Below, in pieces: positions 8,219 through 16,544 of a DNA stretch of 64,000 bases (within the stretch, counting starts at the first letter, position 1; each line of letters opens with the position of its first letter). A program made the translations under genes and the position numbers. The notes below the pieces were generated by a model. It saw nothing but the letters and a program-made list of their open reading frames with translations, had not been told where the DNA came from and did no database searches. This DNA is from Escherichia coli (GTDB lineage Bacteria; Pseudomonadota; Gammaproteobacteria; Enterobacterales; Enterobacteriaceae), in NCBI RefSeq assembly GCF_036507355.1, contig NZ_AP027877.1. One strand, given 5' to 3'.

Positions 8219-9211
<993 letters not shown>

Positions 9212-9349
9212 TTAATGAACTTAATGATACAGCATTACAAAAACAATCGAAGTTTAAAAAATAAAATTTTTATAAAGATGATCTCTGATTGACCAGAACC
9301 CTACCATACAATGGTGACTAATTTTATTACTCTCGAAGGAGATGATGAT

Positions 9350-9853
9350 ATGAATATATCATATGTGAATAGCAACAAAACGACATCTTTACCTGTTGAG
9401 CTAGATGCACTAAATAATAAAGATATCTCTTATGCCAAAGATTTTTCTTATGCCAAAGATTTCTTTTTATATATAGAAATACAGTTAAAAATTGCAAAAG
9501 ATTTTTGTAGACCTGGAGAAGAAGTATCAAGTTCTATTGCAAGTACAGTTTTTCACGCTTTTATTGATTTAGTTAACAAAATCAGGGGAAAGAAAGATTG
9601 TATGTATATTTGTACGCTTTGCTGTTTTGCCGAGGAGGTTAAAGGTGATTATTCTCATTACAGGACCTTTTCATTTGATATCGGTAATCAATATAAGGTT
9701 AAACTTACACAAAGCGGAAAAGATGAGTTCTCTTTAACTTTAGAATTTAACGATACTATAATTGAATCTCAGAAAGTCACAGGCAATAAGGCAAAGCATA
9801 TTCTTAAGGATATAGCAGAATACTATCGTAACAAACCCGGCACTTATTATTAA
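9350..9853 (+). CDS. hypothetical protein, AT-rich, between aphA and tyrB
   Basis: Track ORF 9311-9853; in-frame ATG at 9350 preceded by a strong SD (GAAGGAG); long open frame in ~30% GC DNA; internal 18-bp tandem duplication encoding SYAKDF-SYAKDF; no recognisable domain. Confidence 0.45.
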   Translation: MNISYVNSNKTTSLPVELDALNNKDISYAKDFSYAKDFFLYIEIQLKIAKDFCRPGEEVSSSIASTVFHAFIDLVNKIRGKKDCMYICTLCCFAEEVKGDYSHYRTFSFDIGNQYKVKLTQSGKDEFSLTLEFNDTIIESQKVTGNKAKHILKDIAEYYRNKPGTYY

Positions 9854-10074
9854 GTTTAATAATGATTAGAAATGCAGAAATTATTACCCCACACAAAAAA
9901 ACAGGGTAAGGAATTCCAGATAATTAGGATAATCTTAACAATAAAAGAACTAACAACGTTTATTATCTCTCACGTAGAACGATGGTATCAAAAAAATCAT
10001 CTATAAAGAAAGTGTGAAAGCGACGACAGTTTAATTTCACTGCAGGCTGGGTAATTCCAGCCTGCTTTACTGCA

Positions 10075-11268
10075 TTACATCACCGCAGCAAACGCCTTTG
10101 CCACACGTTGCACATTTGCCGTATTTAACCCGGCGACACACATGCGACCGCTGGCGATGAGATAGACACCAAATTCTTCACGTAGTCGGTCAACCTGAGC
10201 GGCACTTAAACCGGTATAACTGAACATGCCGCGCTGATTAAGCAGATAATCGAAATTGCGTTCTGGCATCTCTGTGCTCAATACCTTCACCAGTTCCTGA
10301 CGCATTGCCAGAATGCGAGTACGCATCTCTTCTACTTCCGCCAGCCAGCTGGCTTTCAATGCCTCGTCATTCAGCACCGCAGCCACCACCTGCGCACCAA
10401 AATTCGGCGGGCTGGAGTAGTTGCGGCGAACTGTTGCTTTCAATTGCCCCAGTACGCGGCCTGCAGCTTCGGCATCTTCACACAGAACAGAAAGTCCGCC
10501 AACGCGCTCGCCGTAAAGGGAGAAAATTTTCGAGAACGAATTGCTCACCAGAGCGGGTAATCCAGCGCTGGCAATGGCGCGAATGGCGTAGGCATCCTCT
10601 TCCATACCGGCACCAAATCCTTGATAGGCAATATCAAGGAATGGGATAAGCTCGCGGGCTTTGAGAATTTCAATCACCGCATCCCACTGGTCATTAGTGA
10701 GATCGGCACCCGTTGGGTTGTGGCAACATGGATGCAGCAACACAATACTGCGGGCAGGTAATGTTTTCAGCATCGCCAACAGGTCATTAAAGCGCACGCC
10801 GTTAGTCGCTTCGTCATACCAGGGGTAAGTACTTACTTCGAATCCAGCCCCGGCGAAGATTGCTACGTGGTTTTCCCAGGTAGGATCGCTGACCCAGACG
10901 CCTGATTCCGGGAAGTAGCATTTCAGGAAATCCGCGCCCACTTTCAATGCCCCTGAGCCGCCAAGGGTTTGAATGGTTGCTACGCGCTGTTGTTGCAGTA
11001 CCGGATGGTCGGCACCAAACAGCAGCGGCGCAATGGCATGGCGATAGCTGTTAAGCCCTTCCATCGGTAAATAAAGCGAAGCGCCATGAGGCTGCGCATT
11101 CAGGCGCGCTTCTGCATCAGCCACGGCTTTCAATTGTGGAATAATTCCGTCTTCGTTGTAGTACAGACCGATACTTAAATTCACTTTGTCGCTGCGAGGG
11201 TCTTCTTTAAAACGCTCCATAAGCGTAAGAATCGGGTCGCCAGCGTAGGCGTCAACTTTTTGAAACAC
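10075..11268 (-). CDS. tyrB: aromatic-amino-acid aminotransferase
   Basis: 397 aa from a GTG start ([14 protein letters not shown]...); class-I aminotransferase with PLP lysine in [16 protein letters not shown]. Confidence 0.95.
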
Positions 11269-11349
11269 GCGATGGTTCTCCAGGTTTACGGGCAGGTGGT
11301 TAAAACACAATAAACCGGAAGAAGGCGAAGATCGAGTGGATGTTCAAAG

Positions 11350-12354
11350 TCAGTCGGGAAGTTGATGAAGAATTTGCCCCAGTCGCTCTTGCAGCGACCC
11401 CGAAACCGAAAGATAAGGAATGTTCCTGCGCGATAATTCCTGTTCGTACCACGCCTGCTGCCGCGCGCGAAACGCCTCTCCTTGCCGGGTGCCATCCTGC
11501 ACAAAGGGAAATTCCGCGCCGCAAAGCACCACCAGAGAGTATTCCCGCTCCGCCAGCTGGTGAAGTTCTTGCGGGGCATGACCATATTGATCAAGGGTAT
11601 AGAACAAGGTCGTGAGTGGCGATGTGTCACATATAAGATAGCGATTAGCTTCTGCTTGTTGTTCCCGACGTACCTGTTCGCGGGCGATATGCAACAAATC
11701 GTCTGCGGTTAAAACACCATTTTTCTCTTCCCAATAGTCGCGACCAAATTCAGCGACATACGCCGTATCGAGCACGTCCGCCAGTGCTTTTGAAAGTGTG
11801 CTCTTACCGGTTGATTCGCCACCAAGCAGACAGATACGGCGAACGAAACTGCGATAAACGTCGTGCGCCAGCATGTAGCGATAACGGTGAACGTCGGAAC
11901 GAATCAGCGTTCCCGAAGGTGATTTATCGCCAAGTGGACGCTGTAATCGAACGTGTTCAACAGGTTGGGCAAAACGCAGTGCCAACACTTTAGCAAAACC
12001 GTCACCATAATCTTCTGCGGTAAATACAGCGTGTGGGCGGCAACGTAATACCTGCAGGCACAGCGTCGCCACATAATGACGATGGATGTCGGCATCGGCA
12101 TCATTATGCGGTATGGCAGGTAAGTTATAACGCGCGATCAGTTCGGGAGTCAGTACCAGAACCATCGCTCGTGGGAAGCGCACTTGCAGCCACGTCAGGC
12201 GCTTTTCAGGTTCACAGTCAGGCATTTCCGGCACGGAATAACTGATGATGAACAGTTCTTCACATTGTGCCAGCGCGGTATTAATCAACCGTTCATGACC
12301 ACAATGCAAAGGCGCGAATTTGCCAACCACCAGTCCCGTTACGAAAGGCTTCAT
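11350..12354 (-). CDS. NadR-like bifunctional NMN adenylyltransferase / ribosylnicotinamide kinase, no N-terminal HTH
   Basis: NMNAT motif GKFAPLHCGHERLI; C-terminal kinase P-loop LLGGESTGKSTLSKALA and EFGRDY, both co-linear with E. coli NadR; ATG at 12354 overlaps the stop of the upstream pnuC-like gene (ATGA); track ORF extends to a GTG at 12378. Confidence 0.85.
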   Translation of the reverse strand: MKPFVTGLVVGKFAPLHCGHERLINTALAQCEELFIISYSVPEMPDCEPEKRLTWLQVRFPRAMVLVLTPELIARYNLPAIPHNDADADIHRHYVATLCLQVLRCRPHAVFTAEDYGDGFAKVLALRFAQPVEHVRLQRPLGDKSPSGTLIRSDVHRYRYMLAHDVYRSFVRRICLLGGESTGKSTLSKALADVLDTAYVAEFGRDYWEEKNGVLTADDLLHIAREQVRREQQAEANRYLICDTSPLTTLFYTLDQYGHAPQELHQLAEREYSLVVLCGAEFPFVQDGTRQGEAFRARQQAWYEQELSRRNIPYLSVSGSLQERLGQILHQLPD

Positions 12355-12908
12355 GATGCCCGCAGCTCCTTGCGCCACTGATACAAACCATGCCAGGCGT
12401 TAATCCAGAACAGGAAATATAAACCGGCGGTCAGGTTTAAACCGCGAGTCATATACAGTGGAACCGCCAGGGTATTCACCGCTAACCAGACGTACCAGTT
12501 TTCGATCCTTCTTCCCATCAACATGAATTGCGCCAGAACGCTGAAGGTCAAAATCAACGAATCCAGCCAGGGGGCCCAGGCATTGGTAAAGGTGTGGAGC
12601 AAAAAGCCGTAGCCGCCTGCCACGACAACGGCACAGAGTAACAAGAGGAAAAAGTGACTGGCTTGCGTCCGACGCACTGGCAAGACATCGCCACCCTGAC
12701 CTTTCAGCCAGTGGATCCAACCGGTGATGCTGGTCGCGATGAAGAATAACTGGAGCGTGACATCGGCATAGAGTTGCACGGACCAAAAAACCCAGCCATA
12801 AAGCATGCTACCAATTATGCCGATCCACCACGTATGCACATTGTTTCTGGCAGCCAGCCAGACGGAAACCGCGTATGCCAGACACGCGGCGATTTCTGAA
12901 TAAGACAT
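12351..12908 (-). CDS. PnuC-family nicotinamide-riboside-type transporter, short form
   Basis: 185-aa polytopic membrane protein; Trp-rich helices with QLYA..LQ.FF.A....GW..W and ENW..W..N motifs matching PnuC; SD AGGGAGGG 4 nt upstream; only ~22 bp after the alr stop. Confidence 0.85.
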   Translation of the reverse strand: MSYSEIAACLAYAVSVWLAARNNVHTWWIGIIGSMLYGWVFWSVQLYADVTLQLFFIATSITGWIHWLKGQGGDVLPVRRTQASHFFLLLLCAVVVAGGYGFLLHTFTNAWAPWLDSLILTFSVLAQFMLMGRRIENWYVWLAVNTLAVPLYMTRGLNLTAGLYFLFWINAWHGLYQWRKELRAS

Positions 12909-12930
12909 TGTCCCTCCCTGGAGACGGATA

Positions 12931-14010
12931 TTAATCCACGTATTTCATCGCGACCCTTGAAGTCAGGCGCGTAATAAGTTCGTAAGCGCTTACTTTCGTC
13001 ATTTCAGCGATACGTTCTACGGGCAAACCTTCACCCCACAAAATGACCGGGTCCCCGGCTTTATCCTGTGCCTGTGGACCTAAGTCTACGCAGATCATAT
13101 CCATCGCGACTCGCCCGACAATCGGCACTTCGCGACCGTTCACCAGCACTGGCGTACCAGACGGCGCAGCGCGCGGATAACCATCGCCATAGCCCATCGC
13201 GACTACGCCAAGACGGGTATCACGTTCGCTTACCCAGGTTCCACCATAACCAACAGGTTCTCCGGCTTTATGCTCACGCACGGCAATCAGGCTGGAGGTT
13301 AGTGACATCACTGGCTGACAGCCAAAATCGGCACCGGTGGAGCGATCTTCCAGCGGCGAGACGCCATAAAGAATGATGCCCGGGCGCACCCAGTCAAAAT
13401 GCGACTGTGGCCACAGCAGAATGCCACCCGATGCGGCAATGGAACGTTGACCAGGTTTGCCTTCGCAAAAGGTATTAAAGATAGCGAGTTGTTTCTCGGT
13501 TGCGCCGCATTTTGGTTCATCCGCGCGCGCAAAATGGCTGACGATATTCACCGGCTGACGAACGTTTTTGCACTGGGTCAGGCGATGATAAAACGCCTCA
13601 GCCTGTTCCGGCCTTACGCCCAGACGGTGCATACCGGTATCGAGTTTCATCCAGACGGTAACCGGCTCTTCCAGATGCGCCTCTTCCAGCGCAGCCAGCT
13701 GTTCTTCGTTATGTACGGCGGTATGAAAATGTTGCGCAGAAATCGTCGGCAGATCTCTGGCATCAAAAAAGCCTTCGAGTAACAGTACAGGTTTGGTGAT
13801 TCCCCCCGCACGCAGTCGCAGAGCTTCTTCGAGACGGGCTACGCCAAAGGCGTCAGCATCGGGGAGCGTTCGCGCGGTCTCAAGAAGACCGTGACCATAA
13901 GCGTTCGCTTTCACCACCGCAACCATTTTACTGGCAGGAGCCAGTTCACGAAGACGTTGCAGGTTGTGTCGCAGAGCGCGGCGGTTAATCACAACAGTTG
14001 CCGCTTGCAT
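12931..14010 (-). CDS. alr: alanine racemase (biosynthetic)
   Basis: 359 aa; PLP-binding [11 protein letters not shown] near the N-terminus. Confidence 0.97.
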
Positions 14011-14062
14011 TTGTGTTCCTTGATAAGTGTTTGCTTTAATTACCTAATTCATAAAATAATTA

Positions 14063-15478
14063 TTATTCGTCGTCGTACTGCGGCCCCGCATAGTTGTCGA
14101 AGCGCGACCATTGACCGTTAAAGGTCAGGCGTACCGTCCCGATTGGGCCGTTACGTTGTTTACCGATAATAATTTCCGCGATGCCTTTTAAATCACTGTT
14201 TTCGTGATACACCTCATCACGATAGATAAACATGATCAAGTCCGCATCCTGCTCGATGGAGCCGGATTCACGCAAGTCGGAGTTGACCGGGCGTTTGTCG
14301 GCACGTTGTTCCAGAGAACGGTTCAACTGGGACAGCGCCACCACCGGCACGTTCAGTTCTTTCGCCAGTGCTTTCAGCGAGCGGGAGATTTCTGCAATTT
14401 CCAGCGTACGGTTATCGGAAAGTGCCGGTACGCGCATCAGTTGCAGGTAGTCGATCATGATAAGCCCGATGCCGCCGTGTTCACGGGCAATACGGCGTGC
14501 GCGGGAACGCACTTCCGTTGGCGTCAAGCCGGAGGAGTCATCGATATAGATATTGCGTTTTTCGAGCAAAATACCCATGGTGCCGGAAATGCGTGCCCAG
14601 TCTTCATCATCGAGTTGCCCGGTACGGATTTTAGTCTGGTCAACGCGCGACAGCGACGCCAGAGAACGCATCATGATCTGTTCTGATGGCATCTCCAGCG
14701 AGAAGATAAGTACCGGTTTATCCTGCAACATCGCCGCGTTTTCGACGAGGTTCATCGCAAATGTTGTTTTACCCATCGACGGACGCGCGGCGACGATGAT
14801 CAAATCCGACGGCTGCAAGCCAGCGGTTTTTTTGTTGAGATCGTCATAACCGGTGTTTACCCCGGTAACGCCATCGTGTGGCTGCTGAAACAACTGCTCA
14901 ATACGCGCCACGGTTGCGTCGAGCACATCGGCGATGTTCTTCGGCCCTTCGTCTTTGTTTGCACGACTTTCGGCAATTTTAAAGACGCGGGATTCAGCCA
15001 GGTCCAGCAGATCTTCGCTGGTGCGCCCCTGTGGATCAAAACCGGCTTCGGCAATCTCATTCGCAACCGAGATCATCTCGCGAACAACGGCACGTTCACG
15101 CACGATGTCCGCATAAGCACTGATGTTCGCCGCACTTGGCGTATTTTTTGACAGTTCTGCCAGATAAGCAAATCCACCGACGCTATCGAGTTGCCCCTGG
15201 CGTTCCAGCGATTCCGCAAGAGTAATCAGATCGATAGGACTACCGCTTTCCTGCAAACGCGCCATTTCAGTAAAGATATGACGGTGTGGGCGGGTGTAAA
15301 AATCGTCTGCTACCACACGCTCGGCTACATCATCCCAGCGTTCGTTATCCAGCATTAAACCGCCCAACACCGACTGCTCCGCTTCGATCGAGTGCGGAGG
15401 CACTTTCAGCCCGGCAACTTGTGGATCGCGTTCGCGGGGTTCAGCCTGCTGTTTGTTGAAGGGTTTATTTCCTGCCAT
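14063..15478 (-). CDS. dnaB: replicative DNA helicase DnaB
   Basis: 471 aa; RecA-like domain with Walker A AARPSMGKTTFA; C-terminus ...GPQYDDE. Confidence 0.98.
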   Translation of the reverse strand: MAGNKPFNKQQAEPRERDPQVAGLKVPPHSIEAEQSVLGGLMLDNERWDDVAERVVADDFYTRPHRHIFTEMARLQESGSPIDLITLAESLERQGQLDSVGGFAYLAELSKNTPSAANISAYADIVRERAVVREMISVANEIAEAGFDPQGRTSEDLLDLAESRVFKIAESRANKDEGPKNIADVLDATVARIEQLFQQPHDGVTGVNTGYDDLNKKTAGLQPSDLIIVAARPSMGKTTFAMNLVENAAMLQDKPVLIFSLEMPSEQIMMRSLASLSRVDQTKIRTGQLDDEDWARISGTMGILLEKRNIYIDDSSGLTPTEVRSRARRIAREHGGIGLIMIDYLQLMRVPALSDNRTLEIAEISRSLKALAKELNVPVVALSQLNRSLEQRADKRPVNSDLRESGSIEQDADLIMFIYRDEVYHENSDLKGIAEIIIGKQRNGPIGTVRLTFNGQWSRFDNYAGPQYDDE

Positions 15479-15560
15479 AGTGAATGGAGTTACCGAGATA
15501 AAGAATGGGTCGAAACTTTACCATATGAAGCAGACCCTGACGATACGTTCTGGAGGACAC

Positions 15561-16544
15561 ATGGCAACACGAATTGAATTTCACAAGCACGGTGGCCCGG
15601 AAGTACTTCAAGCCGTAGAGTTCACTCCTGCCGATCCGGCGGAGAATGAAATCCAGGTCGAAAATAAAGCCATCGGCATCAATTTTATCGACACATATAT
15701 CCGCAGCGGCCTTTACCCGCCGCCATCGCTACCCAGCGGATTAGGTACCGAAGCGGCAGGCATCGTGAGTAAAGTCGGCAGTGGTGTAAAGCATATTAAG
15801 GATGGCGATCGTGTAGTCTATGCGCAGTCGGCGTTAGGCGCTTACAGCTCTGTGCATAACATTAATGCGGATAAAGCGGCGATTCTGCCTGCGGCAATTT
15901 CTTTTGAGCAAGCTGCGGCATCCTTCCTGAAAGGCTTAACGGTTTATTATCTGCTGCGCAAAACCTATGAAATTAAACCCGATGAGCAGTTCCTGTTCCA
16001 CGCAGCAGCTGGCGGCGTTGGCTTGATTGCCTGCCAGTGGGCAAAAGCCCTGGGCGCGAAACTTATCGGCACCGTAGGAACTGCGCAAAAAGCGCAGAGC
16101 GCGCTAAAAGCGGGCGCGTGGCAGGTTATTAACTATCGTGAAGAGAATCTGGTCGAGCGGTTAAAAGAGATCACCGGTGGTAAAAAAGTGCGCGTGGTGT
16201 ACGATTCCGTGGGCAGAGACACCTGGGAACGGTCGCTGGATTGCCTGCAACGCCGCGGCTTAATGGTGAGTTTTGGCAACTCATCAGGTGCGGTTACCGG
16301 TGTGAACTTAGGCATTCTCAATCAGAAAGGCTCGTTGTATGTGACACGCCCTTCCCTGCAAGGCTATATCACCACGCGGGAGGAATTAACCGAGGCCAGT
16401 AATGAACTGTTCTCTTTGATTGCCAGCGGTGTGATTAAGGTCGATGTCGCCGAGCAGCAGAAATATCCGCTGAAGGATGCGCAGCGTGCGCATGCGATTC
16501 TGGAAAGCCGGGCGACGCAAGGTTCCAGCCTGTTGATTCCATAA
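15561..16544 (+). CDS. qor: NADPH:quinone oxidoreductase
   Basis: Internal ATG of track ORF gives 327 aa (MATRIEFHKHGGPEVL...); MDR-family fold with AAAGGVG nucleotide-binding motif. Confidence 0.95.
   Translation: MATRIEFHKHGGPEVLQAVEFTPADPAENEIQVENKAIGINFIDTYIRSGLYPPPSLPSGLGTEAAGIVSKVGSGVKHIKDGDRVVYAQSALGAYSSVHNINADKAAILPAAISFEQAAASFLKGLTVYYLLRKTYEIKPDEQFLFHAAAGGVGLIACQWAKALGAKLIGTVGTAQKAQSALKAGAWQVINYREENLVERLKEITGGKKVRVVYDSVGRDTWERSLDCLQRRGLMVSFGNSSGAVTGVNLGILNQKGSLYVTRPSLQGYITTREELTEASNELFSLIASGVIKVDVAEQQKYPLKDAQRAHAILESRATQGSSLLIP

Follow-up and report, generated by a model that had tools for sequence, protein, structure and literature searches.

We propose that the stretch between alr and tyrB in this Escherichia coli chromosome carries an operon of two genes for the salvage of nicotinamide riboside (NR), of the pnuC-nadR type, in which the NadR protein has no helix-turn-helix (HTH) domain, and that this pair is ancestral at its locus and has been lost from most E. 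coli; taken as a whole, we regard this reading as likely. The genes, here called pnuC2 and nadR2, lie in a window of 64,000 nucleotides (the whole stretch of DNA that was analyzed) and occupy an interval, 11269–12930, that corresponds exactly to the stretch from the tyrB start to the alr stop (Table 1). NadR proteins that lack an HTH are established, as is salvage by the pnuC-nadR route (PMC2330246, PMC7221760), and the pair is a fresh, fairly ordinary example of this already known salvage type.

Table 1. Features of the alr–tyrB interval and its flanking genes, in positions of the window.
Feature	Position	Strand	Description
dnaB	14063–15478	-	ORF in gene order
alr	12931–14010	-	ORF and annotation; directly upstream of pnuC2
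alr–pnuC2 spacer	12909–12930	-	22 nt, TAATATCCGTCTCCAGGGAGGGACAATG, with GGAGGG Shine-Dalgarno
pnuC2 (pnuC-like)	12351–12908	-	ORF, 185 aa; Pnu-family transporter
pnuC2/nadR2 stop/start overlap	12351–12354	-	ATGA, read from the sequence
nadR2 (NadR-like)	11350–12354	-	ORF, 334 aa from the ATG at 12354
A5 run in nadR2	11720–11724	-	codons E-E-K-N; recurrent frameshift site
Presence/absence block	11347–12930	.	1584 bp; aligned against the K-12 spacer
tyrB upstream region	11269–11346	-	78 bp, common to carriers and non-carriers
tyrB	10075–11268	-	ORF in gene order

A first-pass annotation had described the gene pair, the sizes of its products, the P-loop GGESTGKST, the ATGA overlap and the missing HTH, and all of these hold up against the sequence and Pfam. 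The pnuC2 TGA occupies 12353–12351 and the nadR2 ATG 12354–12352, and the ATGA that they spell, which recurs as an identical 4-nt overlap in Enterobacter, Kosakonia and Atlantibacter, predicts translational coupling of the two genes. The block that is present or absent contains only pnuC2 and nadR2, with no integrase and no transposase, and its left junction falls 3 nt past the nadR2 stop. The adjoining tyrB upstream region is 100% identical to that of K-12 (query positions 1–78), and its core, CCGGTTTATTGTG...GTAAACC...GGAGAA, is kept in most other genera examined.

The gap between alr and pnuC2 is too small for a promoter or a riboswitch and implies co-transcription of alr, pnuC2 and nadR2; since the tight spacing is conserved across genera (12–26 nt elsewhere in the Enterobacteriaceae), the pair is most likely carried on the alr transcript. 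Scans of positions 10900–15700 returned promoter-like sites that were not above chance, and no convincing terminator either between alr and pnuC2 or past nadR2. A riboswitch search upstream of the pair, proposed in the first-pass annotation, was run with Rfam: positions 9000–16000 of the window gave no relevant match at E ≤ 1, including TPP, FMN or NAD riboswitches, and 16 diverse homologous loci gave nothing relevant at the gathering threshold. The NadR operator TGTTTA-N6-TAAACA, allowing at most two mismatches, matched five times in the window versus 2.5 expected, in no case near the pair.

PnuC2 belongs to the Pnu family, as the first-pass annotation had held. It matches Pfam PF04973 (NMN_transporter) over residues 2–180 of 185 (1.4e-48) and exceeds the cutoff of NCBIfam TIGR01528 (77.8 bits; cutoff 42.45), and its AlphaFold model (pLDDT 91.7, seven helices) has PnuC 4QTN as its sole Foldseek match in the PDB (TM 0.75, E 2e-7). 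The model assigns PnuC2 a predicted PnuC/SWEET-like fold: a core of seven helices (3+1+3), without an additional helix at the N terminus. The score against the enterobacterial PnuC subfamily NF011926 is 64 bits against a cutoff of 335, and the identity to K-12 PnuC is 22%; as judged by these values, PnuC2 is a paralog and not the canonical PnuC. Pnu transporters carry a WxxW(x)3D/N motif with a role in substrate binding, which in the thiamine-specific PnuT is closed by D (PMC5749112). In PnuC2 the motif WxxWxxxN lies in TM6 (W138, W141 and N145), is invariant across 58 homologs, and aligns with the segments WALWIVVN (4QTN) and WLLWVIIN (E. coli PnuC), so that the closing N is the one seen in the N. 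mucosa and E. coli NR transporters. A PnuT or PnuX identity was rejected on the basis of (i) the N in place of D, (ii) the NadR-type partner and (iii) the lack of a TPP or FMN riboswitch. The motif, the partner gene and the neighboring genes together point to NR as the probable substrate.

NadR2 consists of a putative NMN adenylyltransferase domain (approximately residues 1–165) followed by a putative ribosylnicotinamide kinase domain (approximately 170–334), and its translation contains both GKFAPLHCGHERLI and GGESTGKST. The protein aligns with TIGR01526 over positions 3–322 of 325 (1.5e-43) and with Pfam AAA_28 (3.7e-33); the scores lie below the NadR equivalog cutoffs (TIGR01526, 149 versus 341 bits; NF005988, 95 versus 201), and it is because of the TIGR01526 score that RefSeq names the protein “AAA family ATPase”. 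These scores place NadR2, by prediction, in a divergent NadR subfamily. A profile of the NadR2 family matches the solved NadR structures 9x6f, 8x7f, 1lw7 and 6gye over both domains (3e-33 to 3e-15; 2e-26 for 1lw7 and 3e-15 for 6gye), 9x6f being the closest solved relative. In the adenylyltransferase domain, the motifs GKFAPLHCGH (11–20) and SGTLIR (147–152) align with their counterparts in 8x7f, 1lw7 and 6gye, and G11, K12, P15, L16, H17, G19, H20, S147 and R152 occur in all 64 homologs. In the kinase domain, Walker A GGESTGKST, Walker B LICDTS and the LID QDGTR are conserved, and across the same 64 homologs GKFxPLHxGH, SGTxIR, GGESxGKS, CDTSPLTT and QDGTR are invariant or nearly so. The AlphaFold model (pLDDT 85) retrieves NadR of E. 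coli, H. influenzae and L. lactis as all of its top eight Foldseek matches over about 350 aligned columns, with TM values of just 0.41–0.50 because the domain orientation differs from that of solved NadR.

NadR2 begins 6 residues ahead of its adenylyltransferase motif, E. coli NadR (29% identity) aligns with it only from NadR residue 67 onward, past the HTH, and the Pfam search of NadR2 gave no HTH match. A trifunctional, repressor-type NadR was ruled out by the missing N-terminal HTH domain, and a NadR2 that has no DNA-binding domain would therefore be an enzyme only, with no repressor role. Based on these features, we predict that NadR2 is a bifunctional NR kinase and NMN adenylyltransferase.

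In the mechanism that we envisage, NR would cross the inner membrane by diffusion through PnuC2, NadR2 would use its kinase domain to phosphorylate NR to NMN and thereby trap it in the cell, and its adenylyltransferase domain would convert NMN to NAD. The pair, distantly paralogous to the core genes pnuC and nadR, has neither a promoter of its own nor a riboswitch or NadR operator, and by read-through from alr it would most likely operate outside the NAD-responsive NadR regulon. Among the closest known systems is the group of HTH-less pnuC-nadR operons termed “salvage III”, represented by NadR/PnuC of H. influenzae, NadR of L. lactis (PDB 6GYE) and the Hahella pnuC-nadR under NrtR. As in that group (PMC2330246, PMC7221760), PnuC is joined to a two-domain NadR with no DNA-binding domain and the motifs align, and some homologs in the PnuC2/NadR2 clade lie, as in Hahella, in nrtR operons. 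Unlike that group, however, the pair in Enterobacteriaceae is appended to the transcription unit of alr in genomes that also have a complete canonical system, it shares just ~20–35% sequence identity with the solved members, and PnuC2 is the minimal 7-TM form. With the canonical enterobacterial NadR and PnuC (the latter in the nadA-pnuC operon) the pair shares the same two enzymatic domains, the transporter family and presumably the chemistry, whereas the canonical genes are unlinked and core, and pnuC2-nadR2 is linked, coupled and accessory. PnuT with thiamine kinase, and PnuX/RibM, likewise combine a facilitator of 7-TM Pnu fold with a cytoplasmic kinase in “metabolic trapping” (PMC5749112), but their partner is a thiamine or riboflavin kinase.

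The genomic neighborhood in other bacteria bears on the substrate. In 57 of 62 loci the gene immediately preceding NadR2 encodes a PnuC2 homolog; an ADP-ribosylglycohydrolase gene directly precedes the pair in nine loci and an NrtR regulator accompanies it in five, neighbors that support a probable NAD role. At 29 non-enteric loci, however, the pair comes after an uncharacterised AMP-ligase/vWA/MoxR operon in place of NAD genes, which counts against NR salvage; this operon, in the order MoxR-vWA-195aa-AMP-ligase, stands ahead of the pair in numerous beta- and gammaproteobacteria and Verrucomicrobia. Neither the pair nor these recurrent non-enteric neighbors matched any PADLOC defense-system model. 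Our literature search found no activity or transport assay for any member of the PnuC2/NadR2 clade, no paper combining alr, tyrB and pnuC, and no functional study of pnuC2 or nadR2 in E. coli, the pair being mentioned only as annotation in Nissle 1917.

The first-pass annotation had left the substrate open. Identities of just 29% (NadR) and 22% (PnuC) mean that the substrate could have shifted, for instance to nicotinic acid riboside or some other pyridine-type or related nucleoside, or to another vitamin precursor. Such a change would explain coexistence with the canonical NR system, which carriers of the pair also keep, and it would fit the equivalog scores of NadR2 and the many homologs that sit in the AMP-ligase/vWA/MoxR operon. 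We nevertheless consider a different substrate unlikely, since PnuC2 has the N of NR transporters, all NadR motifs are conserved, TPP, FMN and NAD riboswitches are lacking in the window and in the 16 loci, the NrtR and ADP-ribosylglycohydrolase neighbors indicate NAD turnover, and the clade appears to be the NadR-type enzyme of organisms such as Pseudomonas or Stenotrophomonas, that is, salvage III (PMC2330246). NR is still a predicted substrate, but the earlier caution was excessive given the motif, the NadR-type partner, the nrtR operons and the missing TPP and FMN riboswitches.

Redundancy of the pair with the core pnuC and nadR does count against salvage of NR as its explanation. We entertain, as a doubtful proposal, that PnuC2 and NadR2 form a separately specialised, constitutive NAD supply outside NadR control, possibly acting on another pyridine nucleoside (nicotinic acid riboside) or in rebuilding NAD after NAD-consuming attacks. 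Homologs beside ADP-ribosylglycohydrolase with NrtR, or in the MoxR-vWA-AMP-ligase operon, offer hints in this direction.

The pair is present in 868 of 5426 complete E. coli genomes (16%), including ST131, ST95, ST73, Nissle and 536. We take the named carrier strains to be phylogroup B2. In K-12, alr is followed directly by tyrB across a 252-bp spacer, and pnuC (adjoining nadA) and nadR (adjoining radA) are elsewhere and mutually unlinked, as the first-pass annotation had stated. It had also called the pair a second, accessory module, and this stands: the canonical nadR and pnuC are each found in 5424 of 5426 genomes, and pnuC2-nadR2 comes on top of them. Nor is it a core locus of K-12 and all E. 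coli, since K-12 and 4551 complete genomes have instead a single K-12-type empty site with about 174 bp of unrelated, REP-containing filler. No remnants of pnuC2-nadR2 were detected in the K-12 filler, which is REP-like, and REP copies are also found at other positions in the window. A neighboring 2-oxoglutarate dehydrogenase island was evaluated as a proxy for the carrier lineage and found uninformative; it occurs in 1046 genomes versus 868, so the two sets differ.

Where the first-pass annotation erred was in calling the module horizontally acquired. That some E. coli lineages recently gained the pair as a foreign cassette between alr and tyrB would account for the accessory distribution, and it draws on three further observations: (i) the two E. 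coli allele classes of the pair are 3–5 times more diverged than the flanks at synonymous sites (dS 0.29–0.33 versus 0.06–0.13), (ii) the main ST131/ST95-type allele groups in the neighbor-joining (NJ) tree with that of an unclassified Escherichia sp., and (iii) other imports exist in the region, such as the 536 alr at 88.5% nucleotide identity. Against this, the order alr-pnuC2-nadR2-tyrB is also found in Enterobacter, Kosakonia, Superficieibacter and Atlantibacter, where the tight spacing behind alr is the same, as well as in an unclassified Escherichia, so that synteny spans five genera. Distances of the pair follow those of alr and tyrB (r=0.89; Mantel 0/2000), and the NJ tree of each protein recovers the enterobacterial sequences as a monophyletic clade that agrees with the genera. 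The GC content of the pair, 52.1–52.5%, is like that of its neighbors (flanks, 52.6–55.3%), and non-carriers share one filler and not a clean empty site. The marks of a horizontally acquired islet, namely odd composition, mobility genes or a tRNA target, and a phylogeny incongruent with the flanks, are not seen in the block.

We accordingly give recent acquisition little credence, but the excess of dS in the pair over that in the flanks does argue for some recombinational import within Escherichia. The pair is best read as ancestral among its enterobacterial genera and lost in most E. coli, the direction of this change being our interpretation of the pattern. It would have been seated between alr and tyrB before the genera that now carry it diverged, and one deletion or replacement event would have removed it from most E. 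coli, while some lineages, including that of the window, would have retained it. To our knowledge, and judging by its non-appearance among the homolog matches, the pair is absent from Salmonella, Klebsiella and Citrobacter.

Purifying selection acts on both genes: dN/dS between the two E. coli allele classes is 0.07 for pnuC2 and 0.13 for nadR2, and across genera it is 0.07–0.10 for the pair. At close range, between the window and 536, the nadR2 value is 0.39. Truncated NadR2 variants (211 aa plus 3; clusters P0051, P0053, P0054 and P0057) occur in public data in both allele classes and end after FGRDYWEEK at the A5 run; some of them may be homopolymer sequencing errors. A decaying remnant, unimportant in E. 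coli, being lost and with no functional meaning in the window, is very improbable: loss from 84% of genomes, the recurrent frameshifts and the close-range nadR2 value speak for it, but in the window both ORFs have their full length, as they do in 867 of 868 carriers (coverage of at least 80%), the motif residues are intact, and dN/dS is low over the deep allele split and across genera.

The main result is thus a correction, in that a pair taken as an accessory import is read as ancestral and lost by most strains. Within the core chromosome of E. coli it constitutes a clean presence/absence polymorphism, with about one genome in six keeping the pair, and the major extraintestinal pathogenic clones and Nissle 1917 keep a second, predicted NR-to-NAD route that has no repressor domain. 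In practical terms, alr deletions in Nissle-type chassis lie directly upstream of the pair (PMC5394271). If the pair is active, uptake of an NAD precursor would not be shut off by the NadR regulon, which could be of importance in niches of the host and for strains whose de novo NAD synthesis has been lost. NAD auxotrophy is reported in strains such as UTI89 and NC101, according to a passage of PMC8207962 that cites Li et al. 2012. Were the pair a separately specialised NAD supply, it could bear on auxotrophy of the UTI89/NC101 type, and a metabolic capability of their own would distinguish the lineages that retain it, which include E. coli ST131, ST95 and ST73.

The block between alr and tyrB consists of pnuC2 and nadR2 with no other gene, within a run of five minus-strand genes. 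Neither ORF is truncated in the window, and the two are joined by an ATGA overlap, as read from the sequence; the spacer between the alr stop and pnuC2 is only 22 nt and contains a GGAGGG ribosome-binding site, and the end of nadR2 lies 81 nt from the tyrB start. The NadR2 translation includes GKFAPLHCGHERLI and GGESTGKST, and the gene pair described in the first-pass annotation is thus fully confirmed, from the ORFs and their overlap to both motifs.

Coordinates of the gene pair, its surroundings and comparison loci (L-numbers have their own coordinates; L012 is E. coli 536)
Feature	Position	Strand	Remark
dnaB, alr, 185-aa ORF, 334-aa ORF, tyrB	10075-15478	-	ORFs
pnuC2, 185 aa	12351-12908	-	ORF
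nadR2, 334 aa	11350-12354	-	ORF, counted from ATG
aphA	8219-8932	-	two genes beyond pair
near-consensus NadR box TGTTTAACCCAGTAAATA	9067-9084		1 mismatch, ~135 nt upstream of aphA
180-aa ORF	9311-9853	+	between aphA and tyrB
second 2-oxoglutarate dehydrogenase cluster	L014 1-4544; L012 1-4544; L003 1-1625		downstream of tyrB
non-enteric operon, examples	L085 3743-12093; L036 16-5050; L086 5667-11014		

The earlier assignment of the transporter to the PnuC family holds by several measures. Pfam NMN_transporter covers PnuC2 end to end (1.4e-48), its score of 77.8 bits against the NCBIfam PnuC model exceeds the cutoff of 42.45, and its AlphaFold model (pLDDT 91.7) contains seven helices, with PnuC 4QTN as the sole solved fold resembling it (TM 0.75). 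The substrate-site motif W-x-x-W-x-x-x-N is present in PnuC2 and invariant in 58 homologs; its final residue is N, as it is in the Neisseria mucosa and E. coli transporters of nicotinamide riboside (NR), in contrast to the D of thiamine-specific PnuT.

Both domains of the 334-aa NadR2 align with NadR proteins, and a structural search with its model gives NadR for all of the top eight hits. The family profile matches four solved structures, 9x6f (3e-33), 8x7f (4e-27), 1lw7 (2e-26) and 6gye (3e-15), the last three being E. coli NadR and the H. influenzae and L. lactis proteins, respectively. Across 64 homologs spanning several phyla, the adenylyltransferase (GKFxPLHxGH, SGTxIR) and kinase (GGESxGKS, CDTSPLTT, QDGTR) motifs show no or almost no variation. 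NadR2 lacks an HTH, as already stated on first reading: Pfam identified no DNA-binding domain in it, and its alignment to E. coli NadR begins at residue 67 of the latter. NadR2 reaches 149 bits, below the curated NadR cutoff of 341, and scoring under such cutoffs explains why RefSeq names it only ‘AAA family ATPase’.

Identity to the K-12 proteins is low (NadR2 to NadR, 29%; PnuC2 to PnuC, 22%). In K-12, canonical nadR adjoins radA and canonical pnuC adjoins nadA, and each is found in 5424 of 5426 complete E. coli genomes (nadR query, comparison locus L084 11790-13022). The pair thus supplements these genes with a set of distant paralogs, as expected of the proposed second module beyond K-12's own unlinked genes. 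For canonical nadR, too, the alleles fall into classes: 345 genomes have a divergent one, only 90-95% identical to that of K-12, and the rest have one at 95-100%.

Within the same collection, 868 genomes carry the pair: 786 with an allele ~91% identical to that of the window (including ST131 strains, UTI89, NU14, ABU 83972 and Nissle 1917) and 82 with one 95-99% identical (including 536, D6, M3 and MIN6). The K-12-type spacer is found in 4551 further genomes, the two states together covering 5419/5426. This spacer and the window have the 78 bp adjacent to tyrB in common, beyond which the spacer continues to the alr stop with ~174 bp that are unrelated and include a REP-like element. The filler, whose REP part is repeated elsewhere in the window, contains no remnant of the pair. 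Window gene order is standard (soxRS-ssb-uvrA-aphA-tyrB-alr-dnaB-lexA-plsB); for window 1-25000 (25 kb) there is no better match than 97.8-98.0% identity, and the lineage is thus without a close representative among the 5426 genomes.

The proposal that the pair was horizontally acquired is not supported. The arrangement alr-pnuC2-nadR2-tyrB occurs at the identical position, with homologs 58-74% identical, in Enterobacter hormaechei, E. cloacae, Enterobacter genomosp. O, two Superficieibacter, five Kosakonia, Atlantibacter hermannii and the unclassified Escherichia sp. MOD1-EC7003, where the 4-nt overlap is kept and the alr-to-pnuC2 gap is 12-26 nt. In pairwise comparisons, protein distances for the two genes rise with those for alr and tyrB (r=0.89; 0/2000 permutations as high), neighbour-joining trees of both proteins, drawn without bootstrap support, give a single enterobacterial clade branching genus by genus, and the two-gene block has a GC content of 52%, similar to its neighbours. 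No protein from Salmonella, Klebsiella or Citrobacter appeared among the best 120 homologs (down to 51% identity) or in a genome scan, and the distribution is therefore patchy across genera. The most economical explanation is that the pair was present in an enterobacterial ancestor and was then lost repeatedly, one such deletion or replacement now being dominant in E. coli.

Ancestral retention is complicated by one point, the exchange of alleles within the genus. Between the two E. coli allele classes dS is 0.29-0.33, versus 0.06-0.13 for dnaB, alr and tyrB, and the common allele clusters with the one in the unclassified Escherichia sp.; such exchange has therefore happened in the region, as it has for the alr of 536. 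This alr (L012 7582-9348) is only 88.5% identical to window and ST131 (dS about 0.49), unlike the dnaB and tyrB of that strain (97-98%), and ~670 additional bp, in which a hypothetical ORF is annotated, separate it from dnaB, a pattern suggestive of divergent DNA imported locally.

For pnuC2 and nadR2, dN/dS is 0.07 and 0.13, respectively, across the deep allele split, and 0.07-0.10 across genera. Public data also include truncated NadR2 variants of both allele classes, all of them ending just past residue 211, where an A5 run lies (11720-11724); they reflect either repeated pseudogenisation or sequencing errors in the homopolymer.

Beyond tyrB, the window has small ORFs and aphA, as do Enterobacter and Kosakonia; in Salmonella, the aphA product is a periplasmic phosphatase converting NMN to NR. 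The 180-aa ORF here occupies the place of the 67-aa yjbS of K-12, a region that in related strains is annotated as a frameshifted hypothetical plus a short one; the ORF appears to be a small gene that varies and may be decaying. In place of the yjbS-like ORFs and aphA of the window and K-12, strains 536, JJ1886 and NU14 have a second 2-oxoglutarate dehydrogenase cluster (E1, odhB, lpdA) directly after tyrB; it is present in 1046/5426 genomes, a set overlapping the pair carriers but not identical to them.

Pnu transporters act as facilitators, and a co-located kinase traps the substrate that they let in (PMC5749112); the pnuC-nadR route from NR to NAD is established, and so are HTH-less NadR enzymes outside enterics (PMC2330246, PMC7221760). 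A PnuC2 homolog lies directly upstream of NadR2 in 57/62 loci of the clade. Nine loci have an ADP-ribosylglycohydrolase directly upstream and five of these also NrtR, an ADP-ribose-responsive regulator (Andreprevotia, Chitinimonas), neighbours that tie the clade to NAD turnover. No TPP, FMN or NAD riboswitch was found at the window or 16 other loci, no NadR operator was found near the pair, NadR-box-like matches in the window, TGTTTAACCCAGTAAATA included, are not above chance, and neither are promoter-like sites. Based on this operon precedent, the NAD-linked neighbours and the lack of riboswitch, operator or promoter excess, we propose that the pair most likely serves NR uptake and conversion to NAD: PnuC2 would import NR, NadR2 would phosphorylate and then adenylylate it, and both genes would be transcribed along with alr, beyond NadR control.

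A different role is kept in view mainly by the non-enteric context. In 29 non-enteric loci, a conserved operon ends in the pair (usually) or in NadR2 alone. Its other products are a PaaK-like AMP-ligase, proteins of 195 and 324 aa, and one of 480-590 aa that contains a vWA-like DxSGS motif; in Pseudoduganella a MoxR-type AAA ATPase (AAA_3) precedes the AMP-ligase, 195-aa and vWA-like genes, and some loci add a gene for a radical SAM protein or for a DZR zinc-ribbon protein. Most of these proteins have no NCBIfam name, and a PADLOC search of them gave no match.

The pair's genes already carry annotation in public genomes, and for Nissle 1917 their position beside alr has been noted in print (PMC5394271); our literature search found no functional study of them. 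The pair is neither canonical enterobacterial PnuC nor trifunctional NadR; it belongs with the HTH-less pnuC-nadR salvage operons and is predicted to work like them. The main value of these results is a corrected history, in which the pair was retained rather than acquired, together with a testable prediction, that carrier lineages would salvage NR independently of NadR.
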